A stretch of 64,000 bases of DNA. Source: Leucoraja ocellata (lineage: Eukaryota). This document shows, piece after piece, positions 6,625-56,534 of the stretch. The notes beneath the pieces are model-generated. The model was not told where the DNA came from and searched no databases. It was given only the letters and a program-made list of their open reading frames with translations. The translations under genes were made by a program, and so were the position numbers. The stretch's first letter is position 1, and each line of letters opens with the position of its first letter. The DNA is taken from positions 9,052,001 through 9,116,000 of the forward strand of contig JAWMAR010000061.1 in assembly GCA_036785375.1 (NCBI GenBank), read 5' to 3'.

Positions 6625-6631
6625 TCACCAA

Positions 6632-20495: not shown

Positions 20496-20715
20496 AGACA
20501 CTAAGTGCCGGAGTAACTCAGTGGGTCAGGCAGCAACCCTGGAGAACATGGATAGGTGACATTTCAGGTTGGCACGCTTTTTCAGACTGATCAGTCTGAA
20601 GAAAGGTCCTGACCTGAAACATCACCTATCCATGTTCTCCAAGGATGCTGCCTGACCTGCTGAGTCACTCCAGCACTTTGTCTTTTTTTGTAAACCAACA
20701 TCTGCAGTTCGTTGT
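20496..20715. mobile_element. Palindromic (inverted dimer) element derived from Penelope ends
   Basis: Two ~90-bp inverted arms around the perfect palindrome ttcagactgatcagtctgaa (20581-20600). Confidence 0.85.
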
Positions 20716-20795
20716 TTTTATATTTTGCCTGCTTTAACTTTTAGGTTCTTGTGTTATATTCAGGAACGATACCCCAGGAAGAGTCAATACCCCAT

Positions 20796-21335
20796 GTATT
20801 GTATTGTATTGTATTGTATTCAAATTTATTGTCATTGTCCCAATTTGGGACAACGAAATGAATTTCCCTTACAGGCAGTATCATAAAAAAATCACAAAGA
20901 AATAATAAAAATAAATAATAAATAAATAATAAAACATTAAAAATAAAATTGAAATTGAATTAAAATGTAAAAAAAAGCACAAATACAGAAGTCCACGACA
21001 CAACATAACATAAATGGCACCAAGGTGAGGATGGCACCATAGTCCAGCCAGCCTCCCCTCCATGTTCATCCGTGGTCGGGGCCTTCCGAGCACCCGCAGT
21101 CGCCGCCCCGTGTGGCCCGATGTTCAGGCCCTCACGCCGGGCTGGTGGAACGCCGACGCCGAACCCCGACGGTGAGCATCTTCCTCCTCAGCGGCCCGGA
21201 CCTCCTGATCAGCCGCCTCCCGCTGCCAGAGTCTGCAGCTCCTGAGTCCACAGGCCGAGCCGGGCAGAGTCACAGGACCCCGCGTTGTTAGTCAGCGCCG
21301 CCCGCGTTGGGAGCTCCGCAAACCGCAGACCATGG
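20796..21335 (-). mobile_element. Young unclassified retro-insertion with CpG-rich body, AATAAA and (AATAC)n tail
   Basis: (tattg)5 at 20796-20820 followed by tttatt (minus-strand AATAAA), an A/T-rich segment and an unmutated CpG-rich body; agagtcaata repeated at 20780-20789 and 21336-21345. Confidence 0.65.
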
Positions 21336-21384
21336 AGAGTCAATAACATCTTCATGTAAAGAATAACCCAATGGAGAAGGGACT

Positions 21385-22060
21385 AAAATTCCTAGGGGTA
21401 CCAACTGGCACATAGTTTCCTGAAAATGGCAACACAGGGAGACAGGGGGGTGAAGGTGGCATTTAGCGTTCTTGCTTTCATCGGTCAGGGCATCAGTAGA
21501 GGATGTGGAACATGGTGTTGGAACCAAACAAAACGTTTGTGAGCATCGTTCACAGTTCTGGTCCCCCAGACTTAAGAAGGACGGCATTGAGCTGGAAAGG
21601 GAGCGGAAAATATTGATGAGGATGCTACCAAGACTGGAGGGTTTGAATTATAAGGAGAGGTTGGATAGACTGGGACTTTTTTCCCTAGAGCGTAGGAGGC
21701 TGAGGGGTAACCTTATAAGATGATGAGGGGTGTAGATAATGTGGATGGTCATAGTCTTTTTCCCAGGGCAAGGGAGTCAATAATTAGGTATAGATTTAAA
21801 GTGAGAGAGGAAAGAATTATAAGGGACCTGAGGGGCAACTATATCATAGTGTGGAGTGGGTAAATGGAATGAGCTGCCAGAGGAAGCCGGAGAAACAGGT
21901 ACAATTACAACATTTAAAAGATATTTGGACAGATGCAAGGATAGAAAAGGATTAGAGATACGACTCAAATCCAGGCAAATGGGACAAGCTGAGATAGACT
22001 TTGGTCAGCATGGAGGAGCTGGGCCGAATGGTCTGTATTTGTGCTGTCTGCCTCTACAAA
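21385..22060 (+). mobile_element. Degenerate CR1 LINE 3' part
   Basis: QFWSPRLKKD..ELER...LEGLNYKERLDRLGLFSLERRRLRG and WNELPEE..E.GTITTFKRYLDR remnants plus gggccgaatggtctg tail. Confidence 0.85.
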
Positions 22061-24324
22061 TTTAAGAGGGAGGCAAGGATGCAGAAACTGATTATGAAGG
22101 AATTTTAAAAATAATGAAGGAGACAAAGAGGTGGGATTCAAAGCTGGTTCACAGTGAAAGAGAGAATGAGTGGTTTAATAATCTGGAACAGAAGCAAGAT
22201 ATCTAAGCAGCCCATTAAATCAGAGCAAATGGTTTCTTCACACAAGCTCACATCTCCTCCCACTGACCTGCACTGTAAATTAACAACTCTAACTTCAATG
22301 TCTCTGACATATCATTGTTTCTCGCTGCTTGTCTTTGCCAGCACTCTTCAGGGAAATCTACCTGGGAATAAGCAACATCCACAATTCCTTCTCGGAAATT
22401 GCAAGCATTAGAAAATGACAAAGACTCTGACAAACCCCACTGTACAAGGAACATGGGATATTTTTCCCTTTCCTTGCTTTCATGCCAAATGGATGCCATT
22501 TCATCAAAATCATCTATATCGAACCACTGGAGATGAATATTCAGCCCAGTATTGCAATGTGCCGCATGTTTCTAATCTACAAGCTGAGGCCGCATGTCTT
22601 TAATCTACAAGCTGCCACTGTGATGTGAACTGCTACATTTGCAGCTTGTCGTAGCACAGGGCCTGTAGGGATGGATCCAAACATCAGGTAGAGAGGAGCA
22701 AGGTGACAGGAGCTAGGTTTAAAGGAGACATGCAGGGCCTGGAACGTGCTGCTGGGGTTGGTGGTGAACGCAGATATGATAGTGGCGTTTAAGAGACTAT
22801 GAGATTGGCACATAGATATACATAGAGTGGAGCGATATAGATCATGTCAGGCAGAGCAGACTTGTTTTACTTGGCATCATGTCGGCATGGCCACTGTGGG
22901 CCAAAGGTCCTATTTCTGTGCTTTTCTATGTTATATGTTCCAGCAACCCTGGTGTGGTGGAAAATATACATTCAGAATGGACCAAACTCAGCCACTGCTG
23001 ACCACAGCATCACACGAGAAACTGACACAGAGCTGTGGTGTTCAAAGGCTAGTTGAGTAGAAACCGAACAGTTCATCATCCATGTGATCAGAGTGCTCCG
23101 ATCCAGACACATGGACCCTGGGCTGAAACCAACAATATCACACCCACTGCCACTCCACCCATTCCAGCCAGGAACTGTGTAACTCCCCAGATGCCACAGC
23201 AACTTCCTAATACCCCAAAAGATGCTACACAAATGTATAGCTCTCCTTTGCCAAAAATTGTTCTTTTGACAGGCAATAAACAGGCATTTCAGTCAGGAAA
23301 CAGCGATCTGCTTAACTGCACCCCTCAGATTCTATCTCTATCCTTCATAAGGACTTGTGACGTCTGCTATTGTCTAAGTTTTATCACAGGGGCCAGATCT
23401 ACTGCAGGAGAGACAGACATTCCAGCCAGCCCTATGGTTTCCAAAACATTACAGATCTAATTGCAGGAAAATAGCAAGTTTTATCACACACACAAAAACA
23501 AATTAATTAGAAATCAAATAGTTATGCAGGAAGGCTGCAGCAAGCCCTGGAAATCCCTGATGCCAAGATCAGCTTCCACCCATTCCTGCCCCTTGCCCTG
23601 GACCTTCACCGCACAGCTCTCTGTCATTGGCCCCCTCCCTGCCTGTGCAATCCAGCTCCACCTTATGCCTTTGCCAAGCTTGGTCTTGTGGGGTGCAATG
23701 ACAGGCTGGTGCCAAGAGCCATGGATGCAGTGATTGACTGGGACTGATAGCCAGGGGTTAGCCATGGGCTGAGACCAAGGAGGAGAGCATGGATGAGCCA
23801 AGTGAGCTGTGAGGTGCCAGGAACAAGAACTTGGGGATATGAGAAAGGCTGTGGACAGTGCACTCAGCCCAGAGGAAAGGACGGAGGGCAATGATTTCTG
23901 TCCAAAATAGCACTAATTGGAAGAGGGTGGCTGTATTGATGCAGCTGCTGACATTGGCCATTGCTGATAGGATCTCTCCAGGACGTGACATGCAGTGAAT
24001 AGGGCTGAGTGTCTGTCACAGCAGAGCTCAACAATGCTGGAACACACAGAGTGACTTCCGCTGGCCACACTCTATTAGACTTGTGCTGATGTTTGTTTTC
24101 AATACACATTTCCTCTCCACGTGCATATGCCATTGAAATTGGTGAGTTATTGCATGGGAAACAGGAAATATTCCATTAATATTTCCTTCCACACCTCTTA
24201 GCAATCTAAACGAGTGTAAAGTCCTGTCAAAACACACACAGCCCTTCCGAACATTCACCAATAATCTAAAAGCATTGCATTTAGCAACCAGAGCTTCACA
24301 CACACACACACAATCCACAGGTCA

Positions 24325-25285
24325 GCCTTGATCCATTGCTGTTTGTCTACTGTCACAACAGGTCCATGGCAGATGCCATCTCCCGGACTCTACACTCTTC
24401 CTTGGATCTTGTGGATTACAAAGATATCTATGTTAAGATTCCTATTTATTGACTGTTTCTCTGCCTTAACATAATAGTCCCAACCAAACCCATCTCCAAA
24501 CTCCTGAACTTAGGTCAGCTCTCCCCTTTGCAACTTGATCCTCAACTCGGTAGTCATGAAATGCTTTGCGAGGCTGGTGAAGAAACACATCTGCGCCTTC
24601 CTCCCTCGGAACATGGACCCGTTGCAGTTCGCATACCGTCCGAACAGATCCAGGGAAATTCAGAGTGTCTCTGAGGATCCTACAGTGCTTCTACGCAGCG
24701 GCGGTGGAAAGCATCTTGTCCGGGAACATTACCATCTGGTTTGGGAATTGCTCTGCCAAGGACAAGAAGGCTCTGCAGAGAGTAGTGCGTTCGGCCGAAC
24801 GCACTATGGGAACTTCACTCGCCCCCCTGCAGGAACTATACATCAGGAGGTGCAACTCCAGAGACAACAATATCATGAGAGACCTCTTCCACCCATGCAA
24901 CGGACTGTTCCAACTGCTACGGTCAGGCAAACGCCTCCGTTGCCATGCGGTGAGAACGCAGAGGTTGAGAAGGAGTTTCTTCCCAGAGGCCATTCGGTCT
25001 GTAAACGCCTATCTCACCAGGGACTAACTTTACTGAACGTTTTTCCTTCCATTATTTATTATGTAAAAGAATATGTGTGTTTATGATTGTGTTTATAGTT
25101 TGTTTGGTTGTTTGGTTGTTTGTCTTTTTGCATAAAAGTCCGCAAGCATTGCCACTTTCATTTCACTGCACATCTCGTATGTGTATGTGACAAATAAACT
25201 TGACTTGACTTGAACTTCCTGGCCCCTCGACCACAATCAGTGAATACAGGTGACAAAACATTGTCCATGTAATTCTCACCTCCGC
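24325..25285 (+). mobile_element. Old Rex1/Babar RT relic, host of the nested insertion 24548-25212
   Basis: Decayed LDPL.F.Y.HNRS.ADAIS...KL.SKLL.LG..S.LCN.ILN resumes after the insert as NFL..RPQSV..GDKT. Confidence 0.7.
24548..25212 (+). mobile_element. Young Rex1/Babar LINE, internally deleted, with (CTTGA)n tail
   Basis: VVMKCFARLVKKHI...DPLQFAYRPNRS fused directly to C-terminal FY.AAVESILSGNITIWFGNC...RSFFPEAIR; tail aataaacttgacttgacttg. Confidence 0.9.
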
Positions 25286-25494
25286 TGCTATGGTATAATG
25301 GGCAAGATCTATGTTGGCACTCCTGTGATCCACACTACACGCACATCCCCTTACATAGAGAGAGATGTAAGCAACTACAAAGCTGCGTTATTCAGACACA
25401 TGACTTACTACTGAGCTCTTCACTAACAAAGAAGTGTGTCCCTCCTCAAACTGGAAAGTGTACATTGTGTCTAGAAGGTGAACGAGGATGCAAG

Positions 25495-25580
25495 GATACA
25501 CACACAAAGCTGGAGTAACTCAGCGGGACAGGCAGCATCTCTGGAGAGAAGGAATGGGTGACATTTCGGGTCGACAACAG
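25495..25580 (-). mobile_element. Monomer derived from a Penelope end
   Basis: acacaaagctggagtaactcagcgggacaggcagcatctctggagagaaggaatgggtgacatttcgggtcga. Confidence 0.8.
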
Positions 25581-26257
25581 CTTCTGCATGCGATTCCCCC
25601 GTGTGCAGACATTCTGCAAATATGTCCCACCTGAGATGGCACAGGGGGAACGGCTACTTGGGTTGAGTTCCAGGCAGGGATCAGTGCATAGAACCCCACT
25701 AAAGATGTTATCAGGGGGCTAAGGAATGAGACCACAAGAGAAAATATCTGAATGTAAAACGAGTAACATTTCTCCTCCCCAAAGATCAGTGGAAGACAAA
25801 CCTGACCTCCCTCTATTGAATATTCATTGCAGTTTGATCACAGCTCCCTGCAGCAAACGGTGGCGATGAGGAAGGAGACAGAGACAAATGGCACACTTGT
25901 ACGGCGACAACCACATTGAAACCGTGCTTAGCCTGGAGCAGTCACACTGCCCAACACCAGCCAAAGCATGTATACTAATTAGCAGACAGAGCTGACAAGC
26001 TAATTCCCCTCAACATGACACTGTATGGGCAGAGAGTGAGACACACAGTTTATTGGGACAATTAGATCAGCAACTCTTCAAGCAGCAGAAGCAAATCCAA
26101 AAAGACTGCCCTTTGAGAGCAATTTTGTGAAACTGATTATTGTCCCCAAATCAATGCGGACAGTTCATGAGTTTCACTTTGAGGAAAATGAAGATTGAGA
26201 AGCAGATGATGCAGTGGGCTGGTCTCACACTGTGATGCTTGGACAGGTAAAATAATG

Positions 26258-26356
26258 AGGAAGGGTCTCGACCCGATACCTCACCCATTCCTTCTCTCCA
26301 GAGATGCTGCCTGTCCTGTCCCGCTGAGTTACTCCAGATTTTTGTGTCTACCTTCA
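26258..26356 (+). mobile_element. Monomer derived from a Penelope end, with 11-bp TSD
   Basis: TSD gtaaaataatg at 26247-26257 and 26357-26367. Confidence 0.85.
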
Positions 26357-28494
26357 GTAAAATAATGGAACAGGAGAACAGCTCTTCATGCCTTGTAAGG
26401 TTAATCAGCATCAGTAGTTCCCTCCATTCACACATGTAGACTTCAATGAGGCGTTGGAGCTGAGCGGATTCTCTGGCGGTGAGGGGTCCCAGAGACGGTC
26501 AGGTGGATTACTTGGTCCAGGAGAGCCGGAGTGTTGATGTGCTGTGCGTATGATAATCACTGGCATTTAGGATCAAAGTATCAAACATATTCTGGGACAG
26601 CTGGTAAATGTCGACAGGAGTATACAATAAAAATAAATCATTTGGGAGCCTCTGCCCTGGGGGACTGGGATAATCTGCTTTAGATTTTGTTTTTTACTGT
26701 GTAAGCAAAGATTTCAAGAGATGCATCAGAATTCGCAAAATGGGCTGATCATGGAATGAGTCACTGAAGCCCACACACCCAGGCAGAGCCATCCAATGAG
26801 CCCTTTCCTCTGCTCCCTCGCCGTGAGCCTGCAGTCTTATCCTCAGCGTTTCTCCATTCGCCTCAGGAGCGGCACGCTGGCCTCTACCTCAGTTGTTCCA
26901 CGTTCAAACTCGAGAGCAAAATGTAATCTATTGCTCCACTGATAAAAATGACATCACTCAACTTTTGATCTTTCCTCCCATTTACCTATTTAAAACCTGT
27001 TGTATCTCTAACATGTCTCAGTTCTGATCCAAGATCAATGCCCTGAACCAGTAACTCTATTTTTCTTTCTGCAAATATCACATGACCTGCTGAATATTTC
27101 CAGCGTGCATTTTATTTAATTAACAAAGGGCTCCCGCTTGTCTCAAGTTAATGGAACGATCCTAGTGCATTACTCCCCGGAACAGCAGGGAAGAACCCTC
27201 GTTTATGTTGCTGATAAAAGTTTCACTGTACCTCGGTACACATTTCACTGTGCCAACTGGCACATGTGACAAATAAATGTATCTTGTATCTTGTACACAA
27301 TATAACCAAGCTGATTAACTGCCATGGAACCGCAACCTCTGCTTGCCGATCCACATGCCGTGGAAATAGTTCCTCACCAATCCTTAATTAAAACCTTTCA
27401 CAATGTTAACAATTATTTGACATAATGTGATTTTAAAAGCAGAATGTGAGTGATGTACGTACGGTGTGGATGGTAACAGTCCCTGCATCACGTGATGCCA
27501 ATAAGGTTTGGCTGAGGCAACATTAAGTCCAAAACATTGGTTTCCTAAAAGTCTCTCTCCCTCCCTCCCTCCTTAAGATGTTCCAGAAAATCTCATTCTC
27601 TGTTCCAATCTACTCACACCATCCATCCTCAGCCTTGTCCACTATTTAAGGAATAGTACATCTTTCACTTCACAGACCAAGTTCAATACTCAGAAAATAA
27701 CAAATAAAGCAAATCCTTCAAACACCAGGAGCAGGTATTGATTCCATGTCCCCCCTCCTCCAGGCCCATCATTTGTTCCATTTAATACTGCCTTCTACCA
27801 ACATCTCTTTTGTCATTTAATGTGCCTTGCCTTCTAATCTATCACAACCTATCCCTTTTGTTCTCTCGTCCCCTTCATTCTTTCTCTACTTAAAATGTTG
27901 ATTTCTAAGCTTTTTCTGTTCTGGTTAAAGATGAATGAATGCTGGACATTTAATTTTCTCTTCTTAATTGCTGCCTGACCACTGAGTATATTGTACATTG
28001 AAAATATACCCTTTGACATCAACATTTGTTTGATAATTTTGTCCACTGTACCTTTAACACTGTTTCACGATATCTAAAAGTACTTTACAACTTTGAAGAT
28101 GTAATCAGTGGTATGTGTGGTGTAGGCACGGTTGTGATATTGGAACCGCAGCTGCCTTGGGATGTTTCACTATATGTGAGGTGTGAAGAAATATACGCTG
28201 CTGTCAATGCTGTAGATTTAAGCCAGCCGATAAGGTTGTTAATATATTGCTGAAATGAATAAATAAAAGATTACTGAGGAATGTGAGATAAAGCCAGCCA
28301 GAAATATAAAAACAGATGGTACGAATCCTATAGATATTTATAAATGAGCTAACGGATCGTTGATCCTATAGAAAACGAATATGGGGAATTAATTAACCAA
28401 TCTTCATTATGGAAGATACAGGTAATATATCAGAAACAGCTCTACATCAAGAATTGGCGAGCAGAGAGAAACTCAGGAAAATAACAATTACATT

Positions 28495-28625
28495 AGTTCG
28501 TAGGTTCTAGGAGCAGAATAAGGCCATTCGGTCCATCAAGTCTACTCCGCCATTCAATCATGGCTGATCCGTCTTTCCCTCTCAACGCCATTCTCCTACC
28601 TTCGCCCCATAACCCCTGACACCCA
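28495..28625 (-). mobile_element. CR1/HER1 3' tail fragment
   Basis: ggagcagaataaggccattcggtccatcaagtctactccgccattcaatcatggctgatc. Confidence 0.8.
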
Positions 28626-29061
28626 ATTACAAGGGTAGGTGGACTGAACAAATGGCCAGAGGTGTGGGCTGACAGGTTTTCAGGACTTATGTACTTCATC
28701 CAAGGGTCTTGAAAGGAGTGGCCAATGAGAACGTTGATGCATGGTTTTCATTTTCCCTAGAATTCCCTAGAATTGTGAAAACTTACGTTTAATATTTTAC
28801 AATTTAGTAGTACTCCATTATTCAAAAAGGAAGGATAAAAAGCATGAACGTGCAGGCCAGTTGGATTAACATCAATCAAAGAAAAAAATTACAAGCTGTT
28901 ATTATTGATGTTAAAACAGTACACTATGAAAATTAATCAGGCAAACACCATAGGGCTTTGGGAAAGCTTTCTAGTTAAATCAAATTATTGGATTTCTCTG
29001 AAGAAGTAACGTTCTCTGAATTGGGGGAAGGGGGTGGTGCGCGGGTGGTATTATAAACTTT

Positions 29062-29460
29062 TGGGAGATACAGCGCAGAAACAGCCTACCAACGGTCACC
29101 GCATACACTTGCACTATCCTACACACTAAGGACAATTTATCTTTTTTTTACCAAAGTCGATTAACATCCAATCCTGTACGTTTTTGTAGTGTGGGAGGAA
29201 ACCAGTGGGGTGGGAGATTGCAACCTCACGTGGTCCACCCTGTTTCGCCTAATGCAATCAACCCGACGTGCACAAACAAGATCAAATAGAACAAGTTGAC
29301 CTACAACTTTAGGCTGTGCACGGCATACGCAAGAAGAGAAAACCCACGCAGTCACATAGAGAACACACAAACTCCGTACAGACAGCACCTGTCGTCAGGA
29401 TTGAAACCAGGTCTCTAGATCTGTAAGGCTGCATTTCTTCGGTTGCACCACTATGCTGCC
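29062..29460 (-). mobile_element. HE1-type V-SINE interrupted by an unrelated ~130-bp segment (~29205-29337)
   Basis: Reverse complement of the SINE at 10860 (gagaacacacaaactccgtacagacagcacc...caggattgaaaccaggtctct), split between ggaggaaacc and gagaaaacccacgcagtcac. Confidence 0.75.
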
Positions 29461-30614
29461 TTAATTTATACTTAGTTATACTTATAATTTATTTCAAAAA
29501 AAATCTTAATAAAGTGTTTTAGCTCAAGGTCATGGAACTAACATGATGGCATTAGGAGGTTTTTGCTTGGAACACAGGAAGGCTCAAATGGGTTCCAAAA
29601 TATAATGAACTTGTTAAGCAAGGAGATGAAAGGCTGCTACAGGTTAGGGTTAGGGTTGGAGATGAGATTTTCAACCAGATCAGCCATGATCTTATTGAAC
29701 GGCAGAGCAGGCTTCAAGGGCCGAGGGCTGGTCCTGCTCTTCATCTGAAGGCTCAAATGTTCATGTGTAGCTAAAAGCTCACACCTCAATCTCCCACACT
29801 CTACAGCTCAAACCATGCACTTCACACGCTGCCCACATCCGCAACATCAGATTCACACTTTCATCAGACAATAGGCAGCAGATTAAAGCTTACAAGAAGC
29901 ACTGCTTTTTTCTGCCATTCCCGTGAAGGAAATACCTCCACTCTGAGATAAACTGTAGCCACGACTTCTTTGTATCTATCATGTCTGCAGATTGTGGATA
30001 TACCCTAGTCCTCCAGGGACACCTTCCCTCTGCTCACTGCTTCTCCCAGGCACTCTGCCTTTCTGCACACGTCTCCTTGTCTTTCTCTTCTCACGAAGGC
30101 AACATGCTGTATTGCATGTTTCATGAATCTAAGGAACTCATATCCACAGGCTAATGGAAGAGAATGAAGCTACACTTGCCAACGGTTTCCATGGTAACCT
30201 TCAGTCAGTGAGGGAACTCAAATAGGGGGTGGGGTGGAGCCTGTCAAATCCTGCCAACTGATATTGCTCTTCTTTTGTTTAAGCAAGGAGACAGCTCATG
30301 TAGAATTGCCTCTGCAACAGCTGGAAAACAGCACAGTTTACATACACATCTACCCACAAACCACCCTTCCCCAGTCCCACACCCTCCTCTATCCTCATCC
30401 CCACATCCTGCACCCTTCTCCACTGCATCTGAGGCATGATAATATAGTCGTTCAATCACTGGTATAGGAGCCAGAGTTCTGGATCCAAAAAAACATGGGC
30501 ACCGGATTGAAACCCACCTTGGCCATCAGGACATTTACATTCAAATAAAATGCAACCAAATAGAAAATTCTAAAATGTAAAATTACTTAATCTCAGTGAA
30601 ATAAGAAAAATAGA

Positions 30615-30860
30615 NNNNNNNNNNNNNNNNNNNNNNNNNNNNNNNNNNNNNNNNNNNNNNNNNNNNNNNNNNNNNNNNNNNNNNNNNNNNNNNNNNNNNN
30701 NNNNNNNNNNNNNNNNNNNNNNNNNNNNNNNNNNNNNNNNNNNNNNNNNNNNNNNNNNNNNNNNNNNNNNNNNNNNNNNNNNNNNNNNNNNNNNNNNNNN
30801 NNNNNNNNNNNNNNNNNNNNNNNNNNNNNNNNNNNNNNNNNNNNNNNNNNNNNNNNNNNN
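30615..30860. other. Assembly gap (N run)
   Basis: Run of n. Confidence 1.
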
Positions 30861-31189
30861 AAAGAGAGAAAGTGTGGAAGCAGGCCCTTTGGTCCACTGA
30901 GTCTGCAGCAACCAGAAACCTCATTACACTAATCCAACATTAACATGATTTTTTTTATTTTCCCTACATTCTCATCGATTCCCTCAGAATCTGCAGGTCA
31001 CCTGCAATTTATAATGGCCAATAAATCTGCTAATTCATGCGTCTTTAGGGTGTGGGTTTTCTCCGAGTCTGCTGGTTTCCTCCCACGCCCCAAAGACTTG
31101 TGGGTTGTAAGATAATTAGCAACTGTGGATTATGGAAAACAAATCTGGTGGTTCACTTACACAGGAAAGGTGCAATAACGGGTGCCCTT

Positions 31190-31900
31190 ACCAACAGTGC
31201 CACATCCTCCAGCTCCATTCTCCCCTCACAGCCCTATGACACCTCCACACCAACCCCAGAGACCACAAGCATCACGACCTGCCCACACATTGCAGCAAAA
31301 ACCAGCACGTTTTTTCCCTTAAATATTGGGAGACTGAGCCATTCCTCTTTGGAACCTTCAACCATCACTGTTCCGGTTCTCACCAACATCATCTCCTTCT
31401 CTGAGATCCCCCAGTAACCGATTCTCAACCAAAGTGTTTGCCACCAGATATCATTCCAGAACAACACCAAAACACCTTTCATGGTCACCAATACAACCAC
31501 TCGCTTCCACCCCAGTGTTGCTGCCAGACTCCATTGCTGATGAAACTCTCTCCCATGCCTTTATCTAAACTTTGTTCACCCATCACACGTGCTATGTGTC
31601 TAAAGTACAATAATTCTCATCTTTGTTTTATAATCGTTTCGTTGTATCACCTCTGCAGCCCAAAAACTGCAAAATCTCCTTGCTCTTCTAATTTGGGTTT
31701 GCTCACCCCACGACAGCTATGTTCTCAGTTGCCAAGGCAGTAAGGTATGGAATTCCTCTCTGCCTTCCCCCTCCTTTAAAATGCTACAAACAAACCTGCT
31801 TCTGTTCTGTCCTAGCAATCCTTTATATGACTGCATCGATTTTCCTTTGCTAAAACACTTTGGAAACATTTCAATTGTTTTAATGTACCAAAGTACACTC
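31190..31900 (+). mobile_element. Ancient L2-like LINE relic
   Basis: C-rich decayed sequence with an L2-like 3' end (ctcctttaaaatgctacaaacaaacc...taaaacactttggaaacatt); no intact ORF. Confidence 0.4.
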
Positions 31901-33000: not shown

Positions 33001-33679
33001 CACCCCCAATACCTGACTAACTGTTCTTCATTCAAGTCAAAGTACAATTATGCCCGGAAAAATTGCGGAGGCTAGATATACAATCAAATACTTTTTAAAC
33101 AATAGCCAGAACTTATGCTATACTAATCTGTTCCAAATGTAAAGGTTTATTTATAATTTTTGCTTTATCTAATCTGTCGTAAAAAAAATTGAAGAACAAA
33201 ATAAGCACACAACTTACAAAGGATAATGCAAATTCATCTAATTCGTCATTAATACACAAGTCTACCAAGGATGCAAAACTTTGTAAAGTTCCCCTGTTAA
33301 GAACATCTGAAATGAAATGGCCCTCTTGCTAGCATTCTTATTCTGCAAAGTGTTTCTTTTTCAGATCAATTTAAATTCTTCTTTTCCGGCACTTTCTTTG
33401 TATTCTTTGTTTCCGTCAGCGTGGAGAACAGAGCGGGTTGCATTGCTCGCTGCTTGCCTGCCTGCCTGCCTGCCTGCCTGCCGGGAATGCACACTATTTG
33501 GCAGAACCACGCTCAATACCTGAATGTGCTGCTCTACACTGCAATCACCTGACTATCTGCCCACAAGTCCATCAAGTCTATGACTACCCTACCCACTTGC
33601 AGGAGGGGTAATTACAGCAACCAGAACATAGAGGACATTCACCACCACGTCCCCTTGATTAGAAGACTTTAGTTGTGAG

Positions 33680-34070
33680 GAGAGTTAGTAGGCTGGGTTT
33701 GTTTTCCCTGGAGCTGAGGCCGAGGGGTGACCTGATAGAGGTCTTTAAAATTATAAGACATAGATAATCTATTTTGCACAAGAAACATATCAATAACAAA
33801 ACGGCATAGGTTTAAGGTGAGAAGAAGGAGTTTTCAGGGAATTTTAGGTAAGTTTTTTCCCCCCCACAGAGTCATTGATATCTGGAACCCATTGCCAGAA
33901 GAGGTGGTGGAATTAGATATTATCGCTATGTTTAATATACATCTAGACGGCCACTTATATCCATAGTATGGTGCAGACCTAATGTGGGCAGATGGGATTA
34001 GAGAAGTTGGCATGGTCTTGACGAGCTGAGCTGAAGAGCATGTTTCTGTGCAGCTTGACTCAATGACTCC
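33680..34070 (+). mobile_element. Degenerate CR1 LINE 3' fragment
   Basis: ctgaggccgaggggtgacctgatagaggtctttaaaattat...tggaacccattgccagaagaggtggtgga. Confidence 0.75.
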
Positions 34071-35858
34071 CTGACTGATGTTAACTTCACCCATGATATG
34101 TCCATGCAGAATCACAGCATGATTGCAGCATACAGGAGAACACTGACCCAGAGAATTCACACCTGCTCTTTGCCTGAGCAACTCTCTTGTTCCACACACC
34201 TCCCTTCTCACTAGGCAGATATTTATCCACCACATTTTATCTGATCTCGCTTGAAGTCCCACTCAAACCTACGGTGCAATTTCAACCATACGTCACATAA
34301 AAAGGTTTTTCACTATGTAATTCTTAATTCTTTCTTTCTCCCTAATGAACAGCCACTATCCACTATGTCCAAACCCCTCATCATTTTATGTATTCCCATT
34401 AGATCTCCTTTCAGCCTTCTCTTTTCTAAAGAAAGCAGCGTCTTTAACCTAATATAACTGCAGCCCCTCATCCTAGTAACTATCCTCACAAGATCTTTTC
34501 TGAATCCTCCCTCATGCCTTCACAATCTTCCCAAAAATCTACCAGAATATTCCATTTCATCTGGACCAGTGTTTAATAAAGGTTCATATTTGTGAGTAAG
34601 ACTCCTGAGATATTCAGGGTAGTTATACCACAGTAACACGTTATCTCAATGTCTGACCTTCAGGGGAACCAATGGATTTGATTTCAGTTCTGACAGTGGT
34701 TCACTTTTACTCTTCCAAACACTCTGGTACAGTTCTCAAATCTTTCCTATTTCAAACCTTCCAGTCCAGCAGGCATGTCTAATCCCATTACTAAATCCTC
34801 AGTGGACATCTACAGAGCTAATTACACAGAATACCCAGCACACACATTCAACCCGACCAGCCTATGCCAATGTTTATGCTCCACTGAAGATTCCTCCCCT
34901 CCAATACTATCAGCATCACTCTTTATCCCCTTAGCCATGCGTTTCCTATCTTGGTTAACTCTAAGGGTGAGGAAGATTGAGAAGATTGTTAGGGTGCTGA
35001 CACAGCCGAGCTTGCCACCTGTCTACACTGAGCCCAGGGTCTGTTGTGCACCTGTTCAGTAAGATCTGGGCTGCGTGCCATCATGAAACAAATGTAGGAT
35101 GGAGTTGAATTTCTGCAGAAGGCCAAATTTGGGAAGGATACCCCATTGTACATTGGAGTCAAAGAGTTTTACAAATAAAAAAACATCTTTAATAGTAATT
35201 GATGCTGCTCCATTTATTTCTCTTAATCAATGGCATGGTGAAAGTGCGTGTTGGTAAATGGAGGGAATGTTTACCACAATTTGGGGAGCAACTCTTCAGC
35301 CATTGGAGGAGGTGTAGTGTTCTACTGGGGAGCAGTGGTCCCTTGCTTGTGTGTGCTCCTGAGATATGGTCTAACTGCAGCAGGCACATCAAAGCACCAG
35401 AGAAATAACACCAACGCAGTCTGCACAAAATTCTCTCTATTCCAGGCCTGATAAGTGCACCAGCATCACCTTCCTCTCCCAGGTTAACACTCTCAGCACT
35501 GAGATCTTAGTGACAGTCAGCTCTGATAGGCAGATCATGTTGTTTGTATACCTCACACTAGGCTCCTGAAGTAAGATACCTTATCACACCAACCAATTAT
35601 CTATGGACAGTTGAAAATATCAAATAATGCTCACAAAGCAGTTGCTACCCCAGCCATAATATAGTCTGTGGTTTTATCAGCCATCAGAATATGGAGTGGA
35701 TATACACTATCCTTCATCAGAGGACCAGGGATGCAGAGGGAGGAGACAGAGGAAGAATGCTGGGCTGGGCAAAGCTGTGGGAGGTCATGAGAGCAAGAGA
35801 AGCGATGAGCTAAGGAATGCATGAGGGAACTGTCTGAGAGACGATAAAAAGATGCAAG

Positions 35859-36058
35859 GTAGACACAAAATGCTGGAGTAACTCAGGCAGCATCTCTGGG
35901 GAGAAGGAATGGGTGACGTTTCGGGACAAGACCATTCTTCAAACTGAAGAAACGTCACCCATTCCTTCTCTCCAGAGATACTGCCTGTCCCCCTGAGTTA
36001 CTCCAGCATTTTGTGTCTACCTTCGATTTAAACCAGCATCTGCAGTTCTTTCTTACAC
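35859..36058. mobile_element. Palindromic element derived from Penelope ends (200 bp) with 15-bp TSD
   Basis: Inverted arms gtagacacaaaatgctggagtaactca... / ...tgagttactccagcattttgtgtctac; TSD ataaaaagatgcaag at 35844-35858 and 36059-36073. Confidence 0.9.
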
Positions 36059-37859
36059 ATAAAAAGATGCAAGTTCACATTTAACCAACTGAACTTCCCG
36101 AAAAAGGTAAAAGGTATTTTGACATTTAATGCAAGAATAAAAGATGGTACTGCAATTACTGCATGAGGCCGTGAGGAGACAGCAGCTGAAATATTGGCTG
36201 GTCTCCACAACTAAGGAAAGATGTGCTTCCAACTGAGGGAATGCAGTGAGGGTTATCAGGTTGATTTCGGGGTTGGGCATGGGGTTGGGCAGTTAGTTGT
36301 CCCACATGGAGAGACTAATCAGGCCGGGCCTGCGCTCTCCCGAGTATCAAAGTTTGACGTATCATCTCATTGAAACATACAAAGTGCTTGAGTTGTGTGA
36401 CAGATCAGACGCTGAATATGTTTCTCCTGTCTATGGTGCTGAAACCAGAAATCATTGTCACAAAATAACCATTCAGGATTGAGATGGGATGTCTTTGCCC
36501 AATGGTGGTGAGTCTTTGAAATTCTCTGCCCCCAAAACTGTAGAGGTGAATTCACAGAGTAAATTCAAGAGAGATTGACAGATACTTAGATATTAAGGGA
36601 TTCAGAGGTATGCAATTAGTGTAGGTAAGTGGCACTGTCTAACTACGATCTAACTCATAATTGAGATCGCCAGTCCATATGCAAGGCTCAAGATTATCCT
36701 TCAAACCATGAGAGGAGGAACCAAGTGGGCACTGGAGTCAGAAACTGTAGCGCAGCAGTCACACAGAAGAGAATCCAAAGGGGTATCGACACTGCGGTCT
36801 GCTCCAGCTAACTGCTGATCAACAGAGCTTAATTACACCAATGATCTCTTATCAGGCAGGAGTTAAAATAGAGCTCAGTAATCATAGCCCAGAGTTAACC
36901 AACAGAGCTGGGAAGCTGCCAGTGGAATTGAGAGGAAATGCATTTCATTTTAATTAAAAACGAAATCACAGGGCGGAGAGCCTGAATACATTGTCCCAGC
37001 TGCTGCGTGCAGCTTAATCACAGTCGCAAAGGAATCTGACAGCAGAAGCATTTCTCCAGTCTCAGATGGGATACAGAATATATCAGAGCATAGAACAGGT
37101 TAGCATAGGAACAGGTTCCTGTGGCACATAATGGCCATGCTGAACATGATGCCAGGTTAAACTTGTCTCCTGTGCCTGCATCTAATCCATATTCCTTCAC
37201 CCCTGCATACCCCAAAGGCTCATAGACACCTAGACATCATCTGCAAACTTACTAACCAACCCATCTACATTGTCATCCAAGTCATTTCTATATATCACAA
37301 ATAAAATAGATTCTAGTACCAGTACATGTAAAAAGACACTGCTGGAGGAACTCCATGAGTCAATCAGCATCTGTGGAGGGAATTCAACAGACAACGTTTC
37401 ATCAGGGCCTTGACCTGAAATGCTGCATCAGGATCTGTGGATAACACTAACTTATTACAATAAGACAAGGCATGCAGGTTAAAACATGTATGTGAACCAC
37501 AGCACATGGAGCTCTGGGAATATAAAAGTGGAATATCTTCTTAATGGTAAAAAATATATATGCGTATTAAGACTAATTGTCTTAAATTGTAATCCTTTAA
37601 ATGTCAGAGTTTGAAAGGTGACTTGATCAAGGTGGTGAAAAGTTAAAACAATTTACAGGGCAAATACACATAAATCACCCCCCCTGGCAGGGAACTCAGG
37701 AATTAGGGGACAATCATTTGAAGCTTATTATTTGGCCATTCAGAAGGATATCTTGAAGCAGTTTTATGATTGGACAGAAGTTTGGAATTCTCTCCAAAAG
37801 GCTGTGGACCCTCAGACAAATATGGCAGCTAAGGGAACCAAGGGATATGAGATGGAGGA

Positions 37860-37950
37860 GAGACAAAAAAAAGCTGGAGAAACTCAGCGGGACAGGCAGC
37901 ATCTCTAGAGGGAAGGAATAGGTGACATATCGGGTCGAGACCCTTCTTCA
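37860..37950 (-). mobile_element. Monomer derived from a Penelope end, with 11-bp TSD, inserted into a CR1 relic (~37580-38060)
   Basis: TSD gagatggagga at 37849-37859 and 37951-37961. Confidence 0.85.
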
Positions 37951-38699
37951 GAGATGGAGGATTTAGGAAGATAAATGGAGCTGAAATATAGATCTGCATG
38001 ATCTAATTGAATGGTGGGGCAGTGTAAAAGGGCTGAATGGGTTATTTATGTTCCTGTATCAGCAACATCCAACTTTAGTGAAGTCACAGATAGGAATCAC
38101 TGTGTAGGAAAGGACTGCAGATGCTGGTTTAAATCAAAGGTTAGACAGAGATGCTGCCTGCCCCGCTGAGTTACTCCAGCATTTTGTATCTACCTTCGGA
38201 AGAAACCACTGCCTTCCTGTCACACTACGAAAGGGCAGCTTTGTGAACAGAAAGTGGCCCTTTGGACAAGTTCCATCATTTAATCAGACTATGGCTGATT
38301 CTTATCTTAACTGCATTACTCACTATGGTTCTAAAACCCCTAATATATCCTTAGTACATGTTCATAACCCAATTTCTTTATCTTAGATATATCATTGCAT
38401 TCCTGTTGGGAAACATACATGCATGATACCTACTAGAGTTTCTGGGGATTTTGCACTCCTCATCCCCAATACTCTGGCCCTCACATTAAATGTTGTGCTG
38501 TCTTGCTCTGGACTCTCCCACAGGTTCTGCACATCCTATTAACATTTGCATCTTAATGTTATTTTCAGATATTTCTTTACAACAGAGAAAGAAGCCAATC
38601 GGCTCACTGAATTTCCGTAGCTCTTGAAGCAACCAAACAACCCTGTTCCATTATCTAGTTCCTCGTCACCTATTGTTATCCACATGCCTATTAACTCCC

Positions 38700-38910
38700 G
38701 TGATTTTCCCACTCCCCATCGACAGTTGTGGTAATTTACAATGGCCAATTGCCTCATCAGCCAGCCCATCTTTGGAATACAAGAAGTCGGAGCACATGGG
38801 GATACCCACAAGATCACAGGAAAATTGTGCAAACTCCACACAGGCAGCATCCGAGGTCAGAAATTGATCTGGGCCCCTAAAGCTTTGTAACAGCTACACT
38901 ACCTACCACC
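38700..38910 (-). mobile_element. Degenerate V-SINE
   Basis: caatggccaattgcctc...atctttggaatac...cacaggaaaattgtgcaaactccacacaggcagcatccgaggtcagaaattga. Confidence 0.7.
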
Positions 38911-40289
38911 AACCTTAACCCTGATCACCTCCTTGTCACCAATAACTACGGTCATACTATTCCCTGCTATATATCAACCCCCTCTGCCCTGGTAAAAAAT
39001 CACCCAGCAAACAAGACCCCAACGCCATGAACAACATTACCAGTTTACAACTTAAATCATAACAGTCCTTGCACTTTTCAAATATCCACAACCTACATGC
39101 TGGAGGCTAAACAGCTCCAGAGACCAGAGTTCTCAGAATTATTAATAATGTATGACGTTCTGCTGTGCAGCACTGAAGAAAACACTAAATTAACCAAAGC
39201 TTTGCCAGCGCAACCCTTCCCCCAGCAACAGTTCCTGGTGATCTGCGCCTCTCACTGGCTCCGTACTTCCATTAATGAGGAAGAGGCACAGAATTGTTAA
39301 TCTCGCCCCTTCTCATACCCTCCTCCAGAAAAGGGGGTCAAATGGCAAACACATTCCGAAACCCCACCGCCTCTGCACAAACATCCACACCACACAAATG
39401 AGCAATGAACACAGGACGTCCACATCCGTCATGATCCAATAATGCAGGCACAGTGGGAAACGAGAGGGAGAAAGAAAAACAAAGACAGAGAGAGAACACT
39501 CTCAGAATTTCATGGCTCTTTCCTCTTCAGTTTCAGACGTTAGCTCTAATTCTTTACACGTGATCGTGAGAGGCAGGCAGGGGAGGAAGAGGGTATTTGG
39601 GGGAAAACTGCAGTCCCCAAACAATGCTCACTTGTTCTGAACTGATTGAGATTAGTAGGAACTCTTTTCCCCTCACTAACCCTGGGCTGCAGGAGCCGAT
39701 GGGCTTTAATCCAACTGCAGGAATATCTACTTTGACCCTTACCTCAAACACGAAGAAAGGTTAAAAAAAAAAATGTTAAAACTGCAAATGCTGGAAATCT
39801 GAAATTAAAAACATAATATTCATAATATGCTACAGGTCAGACAGCCTCTGTGAAGAGAGAATGCAGGTCAGAAGAAAGATCTCCAACCAGAAATATTACT
39901 ACCTCTGGCCTGCTGAGTACCTCCAGTTAGATACACACATTCCAATAGAGGGAGCGGTGCATAAAGAGGCAGAGGGCTGATGCCCAGTGTCACAGCATCA
40001 TGTGTCAGGGGGGTTGCCCAGAAAGATGCACTCCAGCACTGAGACGGCACATGCAGTAGGATCTTACAAAGATAAGTAAGATATAAACAGGATATAAAAG
40101 CTGAACTGGAATCAATTCAAATTAAACTGGCAATAAAAGGACAGGGGGGGGAAATGAGTTCAATGTGTGTGAAGGAGTGCTATCAGGAAGTAGTTCAGTA
40201 ATTAAAACAAGCACATAGACTCCGAATGGAACAATGGAATTGAAAGCATTTGATTAACCCTTGGCACTGAAACAAGAATATCCCCAGTA

Positions 40290-40680
40290 GATTGCCATGG
40301 GCTTAGATCTATATTCTTTAAGTTTAGAACAGTGATAGTATTGAAACATGAGGTCCTGAGTGATCGTAACAGGGTGGATGTTGAGATGTTGCCACTGGCG
40401 AGAGGCTTAAACAAGGAAACACGGTTACAAGGAGGGCGGTTCCTTTAAACTGTGGTGTGAATGATTTTCTTCCTGCATCCCCTGAATTCCAGAGGGTTGT
40501 GGAGAATACGCCACTGGTGGCATTTAATGAGGAGATACATAAACATTTGAAAGATGAGAAAATAAAGAGTAATGGGGAGCCGGTACAACAAAGTTTTGGT
40601 CTGAGGTGGATCAGCCACGATCAGATTAAATGGTGGGCCAGGTAGTTCAGGGGCCAAGTAGCTTACTTGTATTCTTACGT
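40290..40680 (+). mobile_element. Degenerate CR1 LINE 3' fragment
   Basis: cagagggttgtggag...gcatttaatgaggagatacataaacatttg...gatcagccacgatcagattaaatggtggg tail. Confidence 0.65.
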
Positions 40681-43232
40681 GTTAAACATGAGGAAGGAGA
40701 GGCAACAGTCGACCCTGACAAACAGTCATGACAGTCAGACTACCAATACATTGGCAACAACAGTCCAGAGGCAAATACAAGCGATCACAACACATTGTGC
40801 TGTCAGCTTACCAACAGGCACTGTTCAGTCTCGTAAATGGACATGTCTTCTTGTGTGTGATACGAAGAGCTGCACTCACAGAAGGGGAAAACCATTAAAA
40901 GGTGAGGTTGGAAGGCGGGTGGTGGGGACAAGTGGAGATGGCAGATGGAGGGAACTAAAGTATGCCAGTTTAAGAGTTAGGGAAAATCAATTTAGCTACA
41001 AAATGTTGTTATAGTACCTGACTCAACTACCTCCTCTGGCAGCCGTTCCATATACCCACTACCTATTTAGTTAAGAAATTAGGAGCAAGGTAAGGTAACT
41101 GGACACACAGATCCTAATGAGAAGTACCTTCCTTCATGCTGAAATAAATGTTGCTCCTTCCCCCAAAGATGAAACTTTTTCCCTCAAATAATTTAAGCCG
41201 ACCTTCAAAGTTGTAATCAATTCCCATAACGTTGTCACTTTTTTACCATTGATATAACCAATTCCAGTAACGCTGGGCCCCATTCCCTTATACTGTAACC
41301 AAATCCTCTAGTAATGTAGTTCCCTCCCCTCTGGTGAAAACTATTTCCTCAATCATCCATCCATTCCCATCAAACGTGTATCCCCCCCCCCCCCCCCCCC
41401 CCCCAGGAGTGTAACCAACTCCTTTAATGACGCAACTCCTTTCCCTTAACGAGTTAACCCCTTCTGTCAATAATGAAATCATTCCATGCAATCAATTCAG
41501 CAAAACAGTCTTAAAAATACAAGTAATGCAAATAAAGGAAAGATGTTCCACACAAGGCCTGCTCCAGACTAGAGGTCAGTGGGAGAGAGTTGCTATGGGG
41601 CACTTTCTGGATCCCATCCTGCTCTTTCTCATATTACAAATGTGCTCTGCTTCAGTTGAAAGGGCAAGGTTCATGGTTCACAGAGGTTATATCACTTGAG
41701 TTCTGTTCCTGTCTCTCTCTAATAGATGACAAGCCAGCTATAAACTCAAGGACCACTAGATATTCCCAGGATACCAGGTCAAAGGTTAGGTCTGTCAGCT
41801 CATTAATGGATGTAGTTACTAGGTTACGACGATCGGATTCTCTGCATTTGTCAGCTGGGAATCTATCATCCAAGAAGCCAGCAGAGCAACAAGGCTGCAG
41901 GCTCCTTTTAATCCCAGGGTGAACAGCGGGTATGGCTCAGATGTGTGAACGATAAGTAGCAGAACAGGTGGCTATTGCAGGACTGCAGGGCTGCAGGGCA
42001 GTGGCTAGTGTGTGCCTTTCACAATGGTGCACAAAGGAAGAGGTTCTCAAACAAGCAGCTGCCATCATGAAAATTGTGCAACTGGTGAATGTAGAATCTC
42101 AATCAGTTTATTACTCAATTGGTAAATGCATTTCCCAGAGTGAGCCAACACTTGCACAACTGGGCTAGATGCAGGAGCTCGTGCTGTGCATGGAAATGCA
42201 TCACTGCAGCACCCTGCTCACAGAGGAGGCACCCTTGTTTACATGCAAGATCCACCCTTTTGTTACCGTCATTGAATACACTGATTTGAGTGGTAAGCAA
42301 ACTGTAATTCACACATATACAATTACATTTTTTTCATCAAACAAATCAAGAGCAGACTATGAGCTATAAACCTTCACCCAACCAGCTAACTGGTCTTTTC
42401 CAAATGTATTCTATCCTGTAAGGCACTTTGCTTCCAATGGTCTAATGTTCCTCAGACTGACATGCTGTTGGGCCAGACCTTGTTTTGTTCTTCTGCCTTG
42501 GCATATGCAAATGACATTTACCCTATTTCATATAGCAACAGAGATATAGCACAATTTCCCACCACCACCCACAATATTTCACATCTCCTCCCTCTGGGTT
42601 CAATCAACTGAAATGGGATCACTGTAGAGACTTGGTAATGTTCACAATGCGTGAATTTAAGTGTAAGAAATGAATACCCTGATGGAGAATGGCAACTATA
42701 CACCATGCCACACACAATCCCACAACACTAGCACACCTATTAATGCTGCAGAACACCTTTAACATTAGTCCGACCGACTTTACAAAATCCAGCACACCAG
42801 ATACATTCTCCATTCAAACCAATCCCTTAGTGCTGAACAAAGCTGCATACACCATGTTACCAGCACAGCTAACCTCCGCAAAACCGTCAGCAATTAACAT
42901 ACACCATGTGCTCATCTCTCCCTGCACCAGCCCACACCCAATGCCATGAAACAAAGGGGCTGAGAACCCTCACCCAGCTGAACAAACAGGCTGCACACCA
43001 GGATTCTCCTTCCAATTCAATCTCTGCAGTCTATGGAATGACACCACTGAGAAAAGTCAATAACTCCAAAATGATAAGAGAGTATTGGGGAAGGAGGAGA
43101 TAACTGCTTATACGTTGTTTTTAACTACCTGCTCTGGAAGTTATACACCAACTTGTTTTAAACACATGAGGCTAGCTTTTCATGTTGTGATGTTGATAAC
43201 AAACTGAACAATCTAAACTGGTATAGGCAATA

Positions 43233-43427
43233 GACGCAAAAATGCAGGAGTAACTCAGCGAGACAGACAGCATCTCCGAAGAGAACGAATGGGCGACGTT
43301 TTGGCAGACGCTTGACCTGAAACAATACCCATTTCTTCTCTCCAGAGATGCTGACTGTCCCAGAGTTATTCTAGCACTTTGTGTTTATCTTCGGTGTAAA
43401 CCAGCATCTGCAGTTCCCTCCTACACA
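43233..43427. mobile_element. Palindromic element derived from Penelope ends, with TSD of at least 9 bp
   Basis: Inverted arms; taggcaata at 43224-43232 and 43431-43439. Confidence 0.8.
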
Positions 43428-44647
43428 CTGTAGGCAATAATGCAAGTGGAAAATCTATGATATTATTTACTCTAAAATCAGATAAATACCAGCTACTGTG
43501 CTGAGCTGATTCGGAGGTCCGCTGAAAAGTGTCCAAAAAGGTTTGGGTTAATTCCCGCGCGCTGCCCAGGAGCATCGCTGCCCAGAACCAATGGTTTCTT
43601 GGCGCCTCACCAAACTGCTATTCATCAGTACCGGTCATTCGATCATTGAGGCCATCACAGCTGAGACTGCTGCTGTCCTCGGCAACCATCCAACAACTCT
43701 TTCCAAGTACTCAGAGCAAGAACTCTGGATGAATCCCCGGTCTTATAATGCCATCAGCTAACTCAGCACACATCTCCAAAACTATTTTTTAATTACAGTG
43801 CAAGTAATGAGTTGCTTCAGATCTGCATCGATTGAAAATGCTTTTTGGGAAGATTCCAATTGACAAACAGTTGTACAGTGTAAGCAAAGCTCCACAGACC
43901 AACCATGGTTTATCCTTCCATCGGCTAGAGCCTGCCCACACATTCCTCCCTCACATGCAACATTCTGAGGGCCCCGCTTGTTTCCATGGTCATGAACAAG
44001 TCGTCCCTCTCACCTATCGAAAGCACAGAGACGGGTGCTTGCCTGGTTAAGTGCTTTATTAAAGTACAGAAGGTCATTTGCATTGGCCAATCTCAAACAA
44101 ATAGCACTTTACTACTTCACTAACACCCAACATTTAAAAAGAACTCAAAACGCAATTTTTTCCATACTGGTTTCTAAGGGGGCATTTCATTAGCTGCATG
44201 CACACAGAGTCTTGTGTGTCCAAGCTGTAAGCTTACAGCCTGTAGCTCTTGGCATCGTTCAACAGGCATGTATGTGTTTCCAAAGAAAACAAGAGCTAAT
44301 GCTGGATGAATGAGTGAGTTCTAGAGGGGCCTATAACTGACTCTGAACAAACAACACTGAAAAGAAAAGCAGATTTTCAGACATGCACCCCAACTTCAGG
44401 CTCTCTCTCACACTCATTCATTACTTTGGTGCCGATGTATTCGACAGCTTCATGTTGGCAGCCTTACCATAGTTCCCTACAGACAAGAAAACCCACCAAA
44501 AATCTGGTGGTGACAACAACTACAAATCTCAAGGTACAGTTTTGACGCATCCCTTCCACCCCTTTCAGTCAATGTCCCTCAGCCCCAATCAGAATGACTA
44601 ATCTCTCCGTAAACCACAAACACACAGGCCCTAGCCTCACAACACAA

Positions 44648-44812
44648 TACATAGAAACATAGAAAATACTGCAGGAGTAGGCCATTCGGCCCTTTGAGCC
44701 ATTCAATATGATCCTGGCTGATCATCCAAAATCAGTACCCCATTCTGGCTTTTTCACCATATCCCTTGATTCCATTAGCCCTAAGAGCTAAAACTAATTC
44801 TGTCTTGAAAAC
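44648..44812 (-). mobile_element. CR1/HER1 3' tail fragment
   Basis: acatagaaacatagaaaatactgcaggagtaggccattcggccc. Confidence 0.8.
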
Positions 44813-44849
44813 ATGCAAAAAACATAGAACCTTCCAATCTTGGGAAGAG

Positions 44850-45091
44850 TAAAAATGCTGGAGTAACTCAGCGAGTCAGGCAGTATCCCCGGAGTACATG
44901 GATAGATGACGCTTTGGATGAGGACACTTCTTTTTTTGTTTTGGGTAGGAGCCCTTCTTCAGACTCTGTAGAAGTGTCTGACCCAAAACGTCACCTATCC
45001 ATGTTCTTCAGGGATGCTGCCTGACCCACTGAGTTACTCCAGCATTTTGTGCCTTTCCTTACTAAACGAGCATCTGCAGTTCCTTGTTCCT
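44850..45091. mobile_element. Palindromic element derived from Penelope ends
   Basis: aaaatgctggagtaactcagcgagtcaggcag ... ctgcctgacccactgagttactccagcatttt; accttccaat repeated at 44829-44838 and 45092-45101. Confidence 0.8.
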
Positions 45092-45379
45092 ACCTTCCAA
45101 TGTCGATGTGGTTCCAAAACTGTGCAGGATATTAACCCAATTATGGGACAGTAAGCATTGCTCTAACTATAACTGGCTGCAATTTATATTCTAGTCTAAA
45201 TTCCTAACCAAATTACAAAAGCCATCAAATACGGTCATAGTTTATTTAAAATAAGTGCTCGTTTATTTAGAAAGGTTGATGGGATAAATGGATCTATTTG
45301 TGGGTAAAGATGCTAAACACAACATACTACTGTGTAATAAATGACTGGATAACTTAGCAGGCCAAGGAGGAAATATTAA

Positions 45380-56507: not shown

Positions 56508-56534
56508 TACTTCAAAGAGTACTTCAGCTGTTAG

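Follow-up and report, generated by a model that had tools for sequence, protein, structure and literature searches.

Do the short hairpin insertions of a skate genome multiply as units, or is each made anew when it inserts? The question is raised by a 64,000-nucleotide stretch of Leucoraja ocellata contig JAWMAR010000061.1 (positions 9,052,001 to 9,116,000; hereafter the window), in which several elements of about 200 bp consist of two inverted arms joined head-to-head. The initial annotation of the window took the arms for Penelope ends and proposed a non-autonomous, retrozyme-like family with hammerhead cores. We conclude with considerable confidence that the hairpins are the shortest insertions of a Penelope-like element (PLE) encoding a reverse transcriptase (RT) and a GIY-YIG domain, and that they are likely made anew at each insertion. 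The four elements and the deleted fifth listed in the initial annotation were all located where it had placed them:

20494-20716, plus strand: old hairpin in which arm positions 1-93 form the inverted short arm (20494-20586) and positions 1-127 the tailed arm (20595-20716).
35859-36058, plus strand: younger hairpin; inverted short arm to about 35941, tailed arm without hammerhead helix II, tail to 36058.
35844-35858, plus strand: left copy of the 15-bp target-site duplication that flanks the 35859 hairpin (right copy 36059-36073).
38102-38198, minus strand: pair with no centre, in which 38102-38156 is the tailed arm (about 45-55 nt) and 38146-38198 the inverted short arm; hammerhead sequence is absent.
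43233-43427 (within 43224-43439), plus strand: hairpin with arms joined at about arm positions 12/14.
44850-45091 (within 44829-45101), plus strand: hairpin with an additional inverted arm piece in its centre.

The named elements share one layout: the inverted short arm comes first, then a centre, then the forward arm with about 35 nt of extra length. The paired arms and the extension on a single side were seen as described. In the 20494 hairpin the inverted arms (20494-20591/20590-20687, 98 nt) are 83% complementary, its two arms diverge by 11%, and the centre between them reads CAGACTGATCAGTCTG. The arms of the 35859 hairpin (35856-35922/35949-36023) diverge by 3% and overlap at a TCAG-N-CTGA palindrome; the best core of inverted arms lies at 43262-43293/43328-43359 in the 43233 hairpin, and the inverted arms of the 44850 hairpin lie at 44852-44922/44978-45048. 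The target duplications of variable length (15, 9 and 10 bp) reported for the last three are present and are of the retrotransposition type. They read ATAAAAAGATGCAAG at 35844/36059, TAGGCAATA at 43224-43232 and 43431-43439 (identified by eye, the script giving a 6-mer only), and ACCTTCCAAT at 44829-44838 and 45092-45101, where 11 additional bases precede the left arm. A script search for a duplication at the flanks of the 20496 element (the first listed above) found none. Many single arms are also present in the window.

Some arms extend upstream via a pyrimidine tract into a coding end. The natural copy L181 has an open frame of 1201 codons with matches to RVT_1 (E 1e-5) and, at the C-terminus, to GIY-YIG (E 0.009), both under Pfam's cut-offs, together with the motifs DKG, YIDD and YIGET and a CX4CxxC linker (CNRKRCNTC); this frame carries an arm at each end, as tandem pseudo-long terminal repeats (pseudo-LTRs). 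Because L181 has the arm at both ends of its frame, and because the arms of the 35859 hairpin diverge by 4-6% from arms preceded by the Penelope C-terminal coding end, the arm is, on sequence grounds, a Penelope pseudo-LTR i.e. the hammerhead-bearing terminal repeat of an RT plus GIY-YIG element, with which it is continuous, as the initial annotation had supposed. The features of endonuclease-bearing (EN+) PLEs are present: a single open reading frame with RT and C-terminal GIY-YIG, tandem pseudo-LTRs, an inverted 5'-truncated copy with one-sided tail and duplication, and a predicted minimal hammerhead. The linker motif suggests the Neptune or Nematis type, to both of which a CX2-5CxxC-type linker is common (PMC8557442). 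The young family to which L181 belongs (L181:2906-6508) has long open frames, with best matches of up to about 1200 codons that are 88-89% identical to the query protein, and was probably active recently.

We examined the abundance of the arms in 120 stretches of 10 kb (1.2 Mb), placed blind to content on contigs C1-C285 of the 3.44-Gb genome. A 132-nt arm profile gave 617 matches in this sample, and a Penelope C-terminus lay upstream of 16 of 356 arms. Adjacent arm pairs (within 150 bp) were head-to-head in 138 of 197 cases (p 4e-40 vs 0.25), a count that includes 2 duplicates of 2 others lying within larger shared segments. The density of about 115 pairs per Mb corresponds, if the sample is typical, to ~4x10^5 head-to-head pairs genome-wide by extrapolation from large contigs only. 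A flanking repeat of at least 8 bases, with lengths up to 17, accompanied 36 of 88 pairs with one short and one tailed arm, compared with 4 of 176 shuffled flank pairs. These results confirm that the hairpin insertions are genuine and very abundant. Solo arms of 95 or 130 nt that have target duplications and share the 5' boundary occur about as often as hairpins and look like short interspersed elements. In young hairpins (L233-L247) the duplication seems often to extend by 1-4 bases into the element at each end, as would happen if the cut target paired with the RNA at each of the two start sites.

In the anole Penelope two internal start sites flank the tail, and the protein of that element cuts and extends both strands in vitro (PMC11167929); the 3' ends of the arms in the sample match this, being bimodal at about 92-103 and 126-131. 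Single arms are tailed or short about equally often (157 and 150), yet 91 of 107 classifiable pairs have one tail and one short end (p 6e-14); the two start sites are therefore coupled within an insertion. Long coding insertions were examined at 64 loci, about 25 of them covered for only 1.5 kb on the upstream side of the match. An inverted arm within a shared 13-16 bp duplication was present at 9 of the 64; the long arm bears the tail in 4, the shorter inverted arm in 4 and both arms in 1. Where the tail is on the shorter arm, the tailless arm measures 2.2-3.8 kb, so neither arm can have been copied from the other, which argues against self-priming and for two reverse transcriptions.

We propose that the protein of the element would nick both target strands about 10-17 nt apart, and that each nicked 3' end would prime reverse transcription at an internal site of one and the same RNA, the first site being the end of the tail and the second lying about 35 nt further in. 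On the repeat that opens the transcript both cDNAs would run off the 5' end of the RNA after about 95 and 130 nt, and their ends would then be joined head-to-head, often on self-complementary words (TCAG-T-CTGA, TTTCGG-C-CCGAAA). A single primed strand would give a solo arm, and priming at the downstream repeat would give the long inverted insertions. The more specific claim that the stubs are integrated 'strong-stop' products, with two enzymes ~35 nt apart on one RNA, each primed by a different target strand and both running off a start at TCAGTCT immediately ahead of the hammerhead, has in our estimate an even chance of being right.

Comparison of the arms showed that both arms of a hairpin come from one subfamily. 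In 77 hairpins the arm distance was 0.14 within hairpins vs 0.23 between them (equal for short-short, tail-tail and short-tail comparisons), and 343 of 723 non-majority bases were common to the partner arm vs 16% in shuffles. The nearest neighbour of the short arm was the tailed arm of another element in 40 of the 77, another short arm in 25 and its own partner in 10, with 2 tied. A search for arm-biased columns in 91 pairs (95 columns) gave a best p of 0.006, and none remained after correction. The 138 hairpins have 126 different junction geometries; 21 junctions are palindromic, 14 overlapping on TCAG-N-CTGA and 7 on TTTCGG-N-CCGAAA, both of which are self-complementary words of the arm. The junction of the 35859 hairpin has 37 exact matches in the genome. 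Of the 30 loci of this type examined, 4 duplicates were set aside; among the remaining 26 the tailed arm bears the deletion in 8 and the short arm in 11, 7 are unclassified, and either centre base occurs on either side. The commonest young palindromic junction has 2104 exact genome matches; at 15 loci, all on one contig, the centre base comes from the tailed arm in 8, from the short arm in 6 and is unclassified in 1. Since a copied unit would fix the orientation of the centre relative to the tail, which is not fixed, copying as a unit is not supported, and we regard this evidence as strong but not final. Two hairpins with identical fillers occur at both of two loci (L031:3092-3933 and 5496-6085; L105:6807-7682 and 6291-6831). 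They lie in shared segments of 876 bp (93%) and 590 bp (87%) whose spacing differs, and because this much flank is shared they moved inside larger duplicated segments i.e. they are passengers carried in some larger repeat. An origin of the centre fillers in local flanks was rejected: of 34 fillers compared with their flanks, only 2 exceeded the random maximum.

The initial annotation placed hammerhead-like cores, or decayed forms of them, in both arms. A minimal hammerhead is indeed present in the parent sequence, the core (judged by sequence) being intact in 47 of 50 young coding copies, but it is decayed or cut in every named arm: no intact core was found on either strand of the 5 named window elements, and CTGAAGA is lost from both arms of the 43233 hairpin. 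In the sample, 19 of the 138 hairpins have one arm with an intact core, 119 have neither and none has both, and the CUGAAGA core is wholly absent from the 2104-copy junction. A hairpin would hold at most one sense ribozyme per strand, paired to its own complement. Nor did 5' ends cluster at the cleavage site: arm positions 28-32 contain the 5' end of 4 among 276 paired arms and of 6 among 341 single arms, compared with 5 and 7 per neighbouring 5-nt bin. Because cores are not intact in tandem and ends do not fall at the cleavage site, the retrozyme reading fails, and the hammerhead would be a passenger in the stubs. A scan of the window with Rfam gave no hammerhead match; its best match, MIR2118 (44 bits, gathering score 85), was rejected as a generic hairpin.

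The position at which the arms stop is nearly constant. Among solo arms with a duplication of at least 9 bases, 17 of 22 begin 0-6 nt before TCTGAAG; hairpin stubs end 0-6 nt short of the ribozyme i.e. at the same boundary, and conservation across 133 solo arms has faded by -6. Single arms that reach the boundary pass it in 60 of 193 cases, whereas all 9 inverted arms of the long insertions pass it, by 41-1016 nt. It therefore appears that the two cDNAs of an insertion either both stop there or both continue, which is what two template sites would give if one is at the 5' end of the RNA and the other downstream of the frame. The stub boundary is likely to be the 5' end of the RNA, and the TCAGTCT found there fits an initiator consensus. 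We also used RNA data (raw reads of three runs and contigs of three others, from poly(A) and single-cell libraries) with a young coding copy as reference. Reads of the arm occur on both strands, and 74-94% of the raw reads continue into unlike sequence; no GT..AG joint was listed across the boundary stretch at >1000-fold depth in two runs. A search of sequencing runs listed no match recorded as RNA.

A separate observation concerns the interval of 100-260 nt that separates the hammerhead from the Penelope stop codon (L181:2609-2727; equivalents occur in L065, L068, L069, L090 and L139). It begins with a donor-like GT overlapping the stop (CAG|GTAGTC, CAG|GTAATC, TTT|GTTAGT), is closed by a pyrimidine tract plus CAG, and is a possible retained intron; neither spliced reads nor spliced copies of the interval were seen. 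Its end resembles a 3' splice site, a feature that Drosophila Penelope shares (PMC4209133, PMC2377424).

Several other explanations need to be weighed against de novo formation. Copying of a non-autonomous hairpin family by the Penelope enzyme, possibly via hammerhead-processed or circular RNA, would account for the very high copy number, the near-constant ends, the 2104 exact copies of one junction, and the two hairpins each met twice with identical filler. However, those two share 590-876 bp of flank, the 138 hairpins have almost as many junction geometries, the recurrent junctions are symmetric with respect to the tail, and neither two-core hairpins nor starts at the cleavage site were found; animal retrozymes, moreover, are head-to-tail tandems (bioRxiv 10.64898/2026.07.22.740005). 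Diagnostic differences shared by left arms or by right arms, which the initial annotation had proposed to test for, were absent from the 1.2-Mb sample, and on the sequence side this is the outcome that it had itself set against its proposal. We consider unit copying very improbable. Self-priming, in which one cDNA turns at a palindrome and copies itself into the inverted arm, was put forward for Adineta Penelope (PMC3846280) and agrees with the common subfamily of the two arms and with the 21 junctions on palindromes. It is contradicted for the long insertions by the 4 of 9 in which the shorter arm bears the tail. Filler, or upstream sequence derived from the two arms, is found in many centres, and this explanation too appears improbable. 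A different kind of alternative keeps de novo two-ended insertion but takes the centre to be an RT block and not the start of the RNA, the candidates being the edge of a pyrimidine/poly-C tract, a bound 3' splice site or a G-rich cDNA structure. In its favour are the pyrimidine tract ending in CAG that lies just upstream in all long subfamilies, the donor-like GT over the stop codon in several, and the Drosophila Penelope intron that ends at hammerhead helix I (PMC4209133). A leaky block should hit the arms independently, yet 9 of 9 long inverted arms pass (0.31^9 = 3e-5), and the deep RNA coverage listed no GT..AG joint over this stretch; we regard a block as unlikely, though it deserves to be kept in mind.

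De novo formation by two coupled reverse transcriptions has its own difficulties, and the following points weigh against it. A later deletion between palindromic words could likewise randomise a centre, 2104 exact copies of one junction would also be expected from a propagating unit, and most of the 34 centre fillers have no traced origin. Sixteen of the 107 classifiable pairs are short plus short or tail plus tail, and the long insertions come from a younger subfamily than the window elements. It is only the subfamily concordance of the arms that suggests one RNA molecule serving both enzymes. As regards the 5' end of the RNA, no pile-up of RNA starts or ends was seen on the young coding copy in the three raw-read runs, whose library types are poorly suited to this, and most RNA reads derive from element copies inside host transcripts. 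A cap-derived G at -3 to -6 was not above background in the 133 solo arms (0.13-0.21), although an RNA beginning at +1 would conceal it.

Further features of the window are as follows:

56519-56710, minus strand: further head-to-head pair, absent from the initial annotation; its filler matches adjoining sequence over 14 nt.
5330-5641, minus strand: further head-to-head pair, heavily decayed, with a 114-nt spacer.
About 19660-19970 (approximate coordinates), minus strand: host exon encoding the first Ig domain (Ig1) of a DCC/neogenin-family receptor, from a frame scan.

Together with a tandem partial copy behind it, in which the filler recurs, the first of these pairs occupies 56519-56796. Other inverted pairs, 240-370 nt apart, lie at 45382-45841, 37868-38185 and 20173-20475; the inverted pair 45382-45427/45796-45841 (46 nt, 91%) bears no relation to the arm and may represent the ends of a DNA transposon. 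A 245-codon frame at 6628-7362 (minus strand) with a strong RVT_1 match is a LINE-type fragment. The scan for host exons covered 150 of the 170 minus-strand frames of the window, and Neogenin_C exons share the strand of the Ig1 exon at a distance of ~35 kb to the left of the window. The named hairpins sit 5' of the Ig1 exon on the gene's strand and, given the positions of these exons, likely within intron 1. The placement of the hairpins in NEO1 pre-mRNA thus stands as to a DCC/neogenin-family host gene, the assignment reaching family level (NEO1 or DCC). The stable RNA hairpin that had been anticipated is borne out by the predicted fold of the 35859 element (-118.5 kcal/mol, z -14); at about 115 per Mb in the sample, such predicted double-stranded stems are a genome-wide load and not peculiar to one gene.

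The parent is an element of a known kind i.e. an ordinary Penelope type, and the value of the hairpins is as a large record of its insertion mechanism. For the question of how inverted, tailed Penelope-like insertions form, the skate genome provides a very large natural sample. A literature search, covering the text of papers, found nothing on this class of stub in cartilaginous fish or on coupled start sites. If the proposed mechanism is correct, ~4x10^5 strong-stop insertions would record in vivo the coupled two-site priming that in vitro work has left unresolved, and would count against self-priming. For the in vitro system of PMC11167929 it predicts that each arm uses one start site, that either arm of a long insertion may bear the tail, and that the arms pass or stop jointly at one boundary. 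In annotation, the stubs should not be classed as miniature inverted-repeat transposable elements (MITEs), miRNA hairpins or ribozyme families.

MITEs are, like the stubs, short, high-copy and built of inverted repeats. Unlike MITEs, the stubs have variable 8-17 bp duplications and asymmetric ends, and their sequence is continuous with that of an RT element. Non-LTR retrozymes are likewise non-coding, Penelope-related and hammerhead-bearing, but as described in bioRxiv 10.64898/2026.07.22.740005 they are head-to-tail tandems with intact ribozymes in consecutive units, whereas the stubs are head-to-head, have at most one ribozyme per strand, and end away from the cleavage site. The parent sequence agrees with the minimal type I hammerheads of PLEs (PMC4209133) in CUGAAGA, one extra base, helix II, GAAA, a palindromic helix III stub and a 2-bp helix I, although this structure is kept in the young coding copies and not in the window elements; opposite-strand pairs of such hammerheads 100-700 bp apart were noted in 2014 (PMC4209133).

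The closest counterparts are the inverted-pLTR insertions of endonuclease-bearing PLEs, in which an inverted copy plus a one-sided 30-40 bp tail is the standard layout (PMC8557442, PMC3846280). Those of Adineta (Pen2/Pen2a, PMC3846280) and D. virilis (PMC2377424) resemble the skate hairpins in being head-to-head with a one-sided tail, in the 9-17 bp duplication, in the palindrome or overlap at the junction and in the hammerhead within the repeat. They differ in that the commonest product here has no coding part and is extremely abundant, and in that both arms here usually end at one boundary just before the hammerhead. Poseidon of Anolis, for which hammerhead cleavage was not required in vitro, differs in that the L181-type frame starts after the tail and encodes a protein with a CX4CxxC linker (Neptune/Nematis type). 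The work on Poseidon (PMC11167929) found no difference in start site between the strands and did not follow single insertions, whereas in the skate the two arms of a pair use one start site each in 91 of 107 cases.

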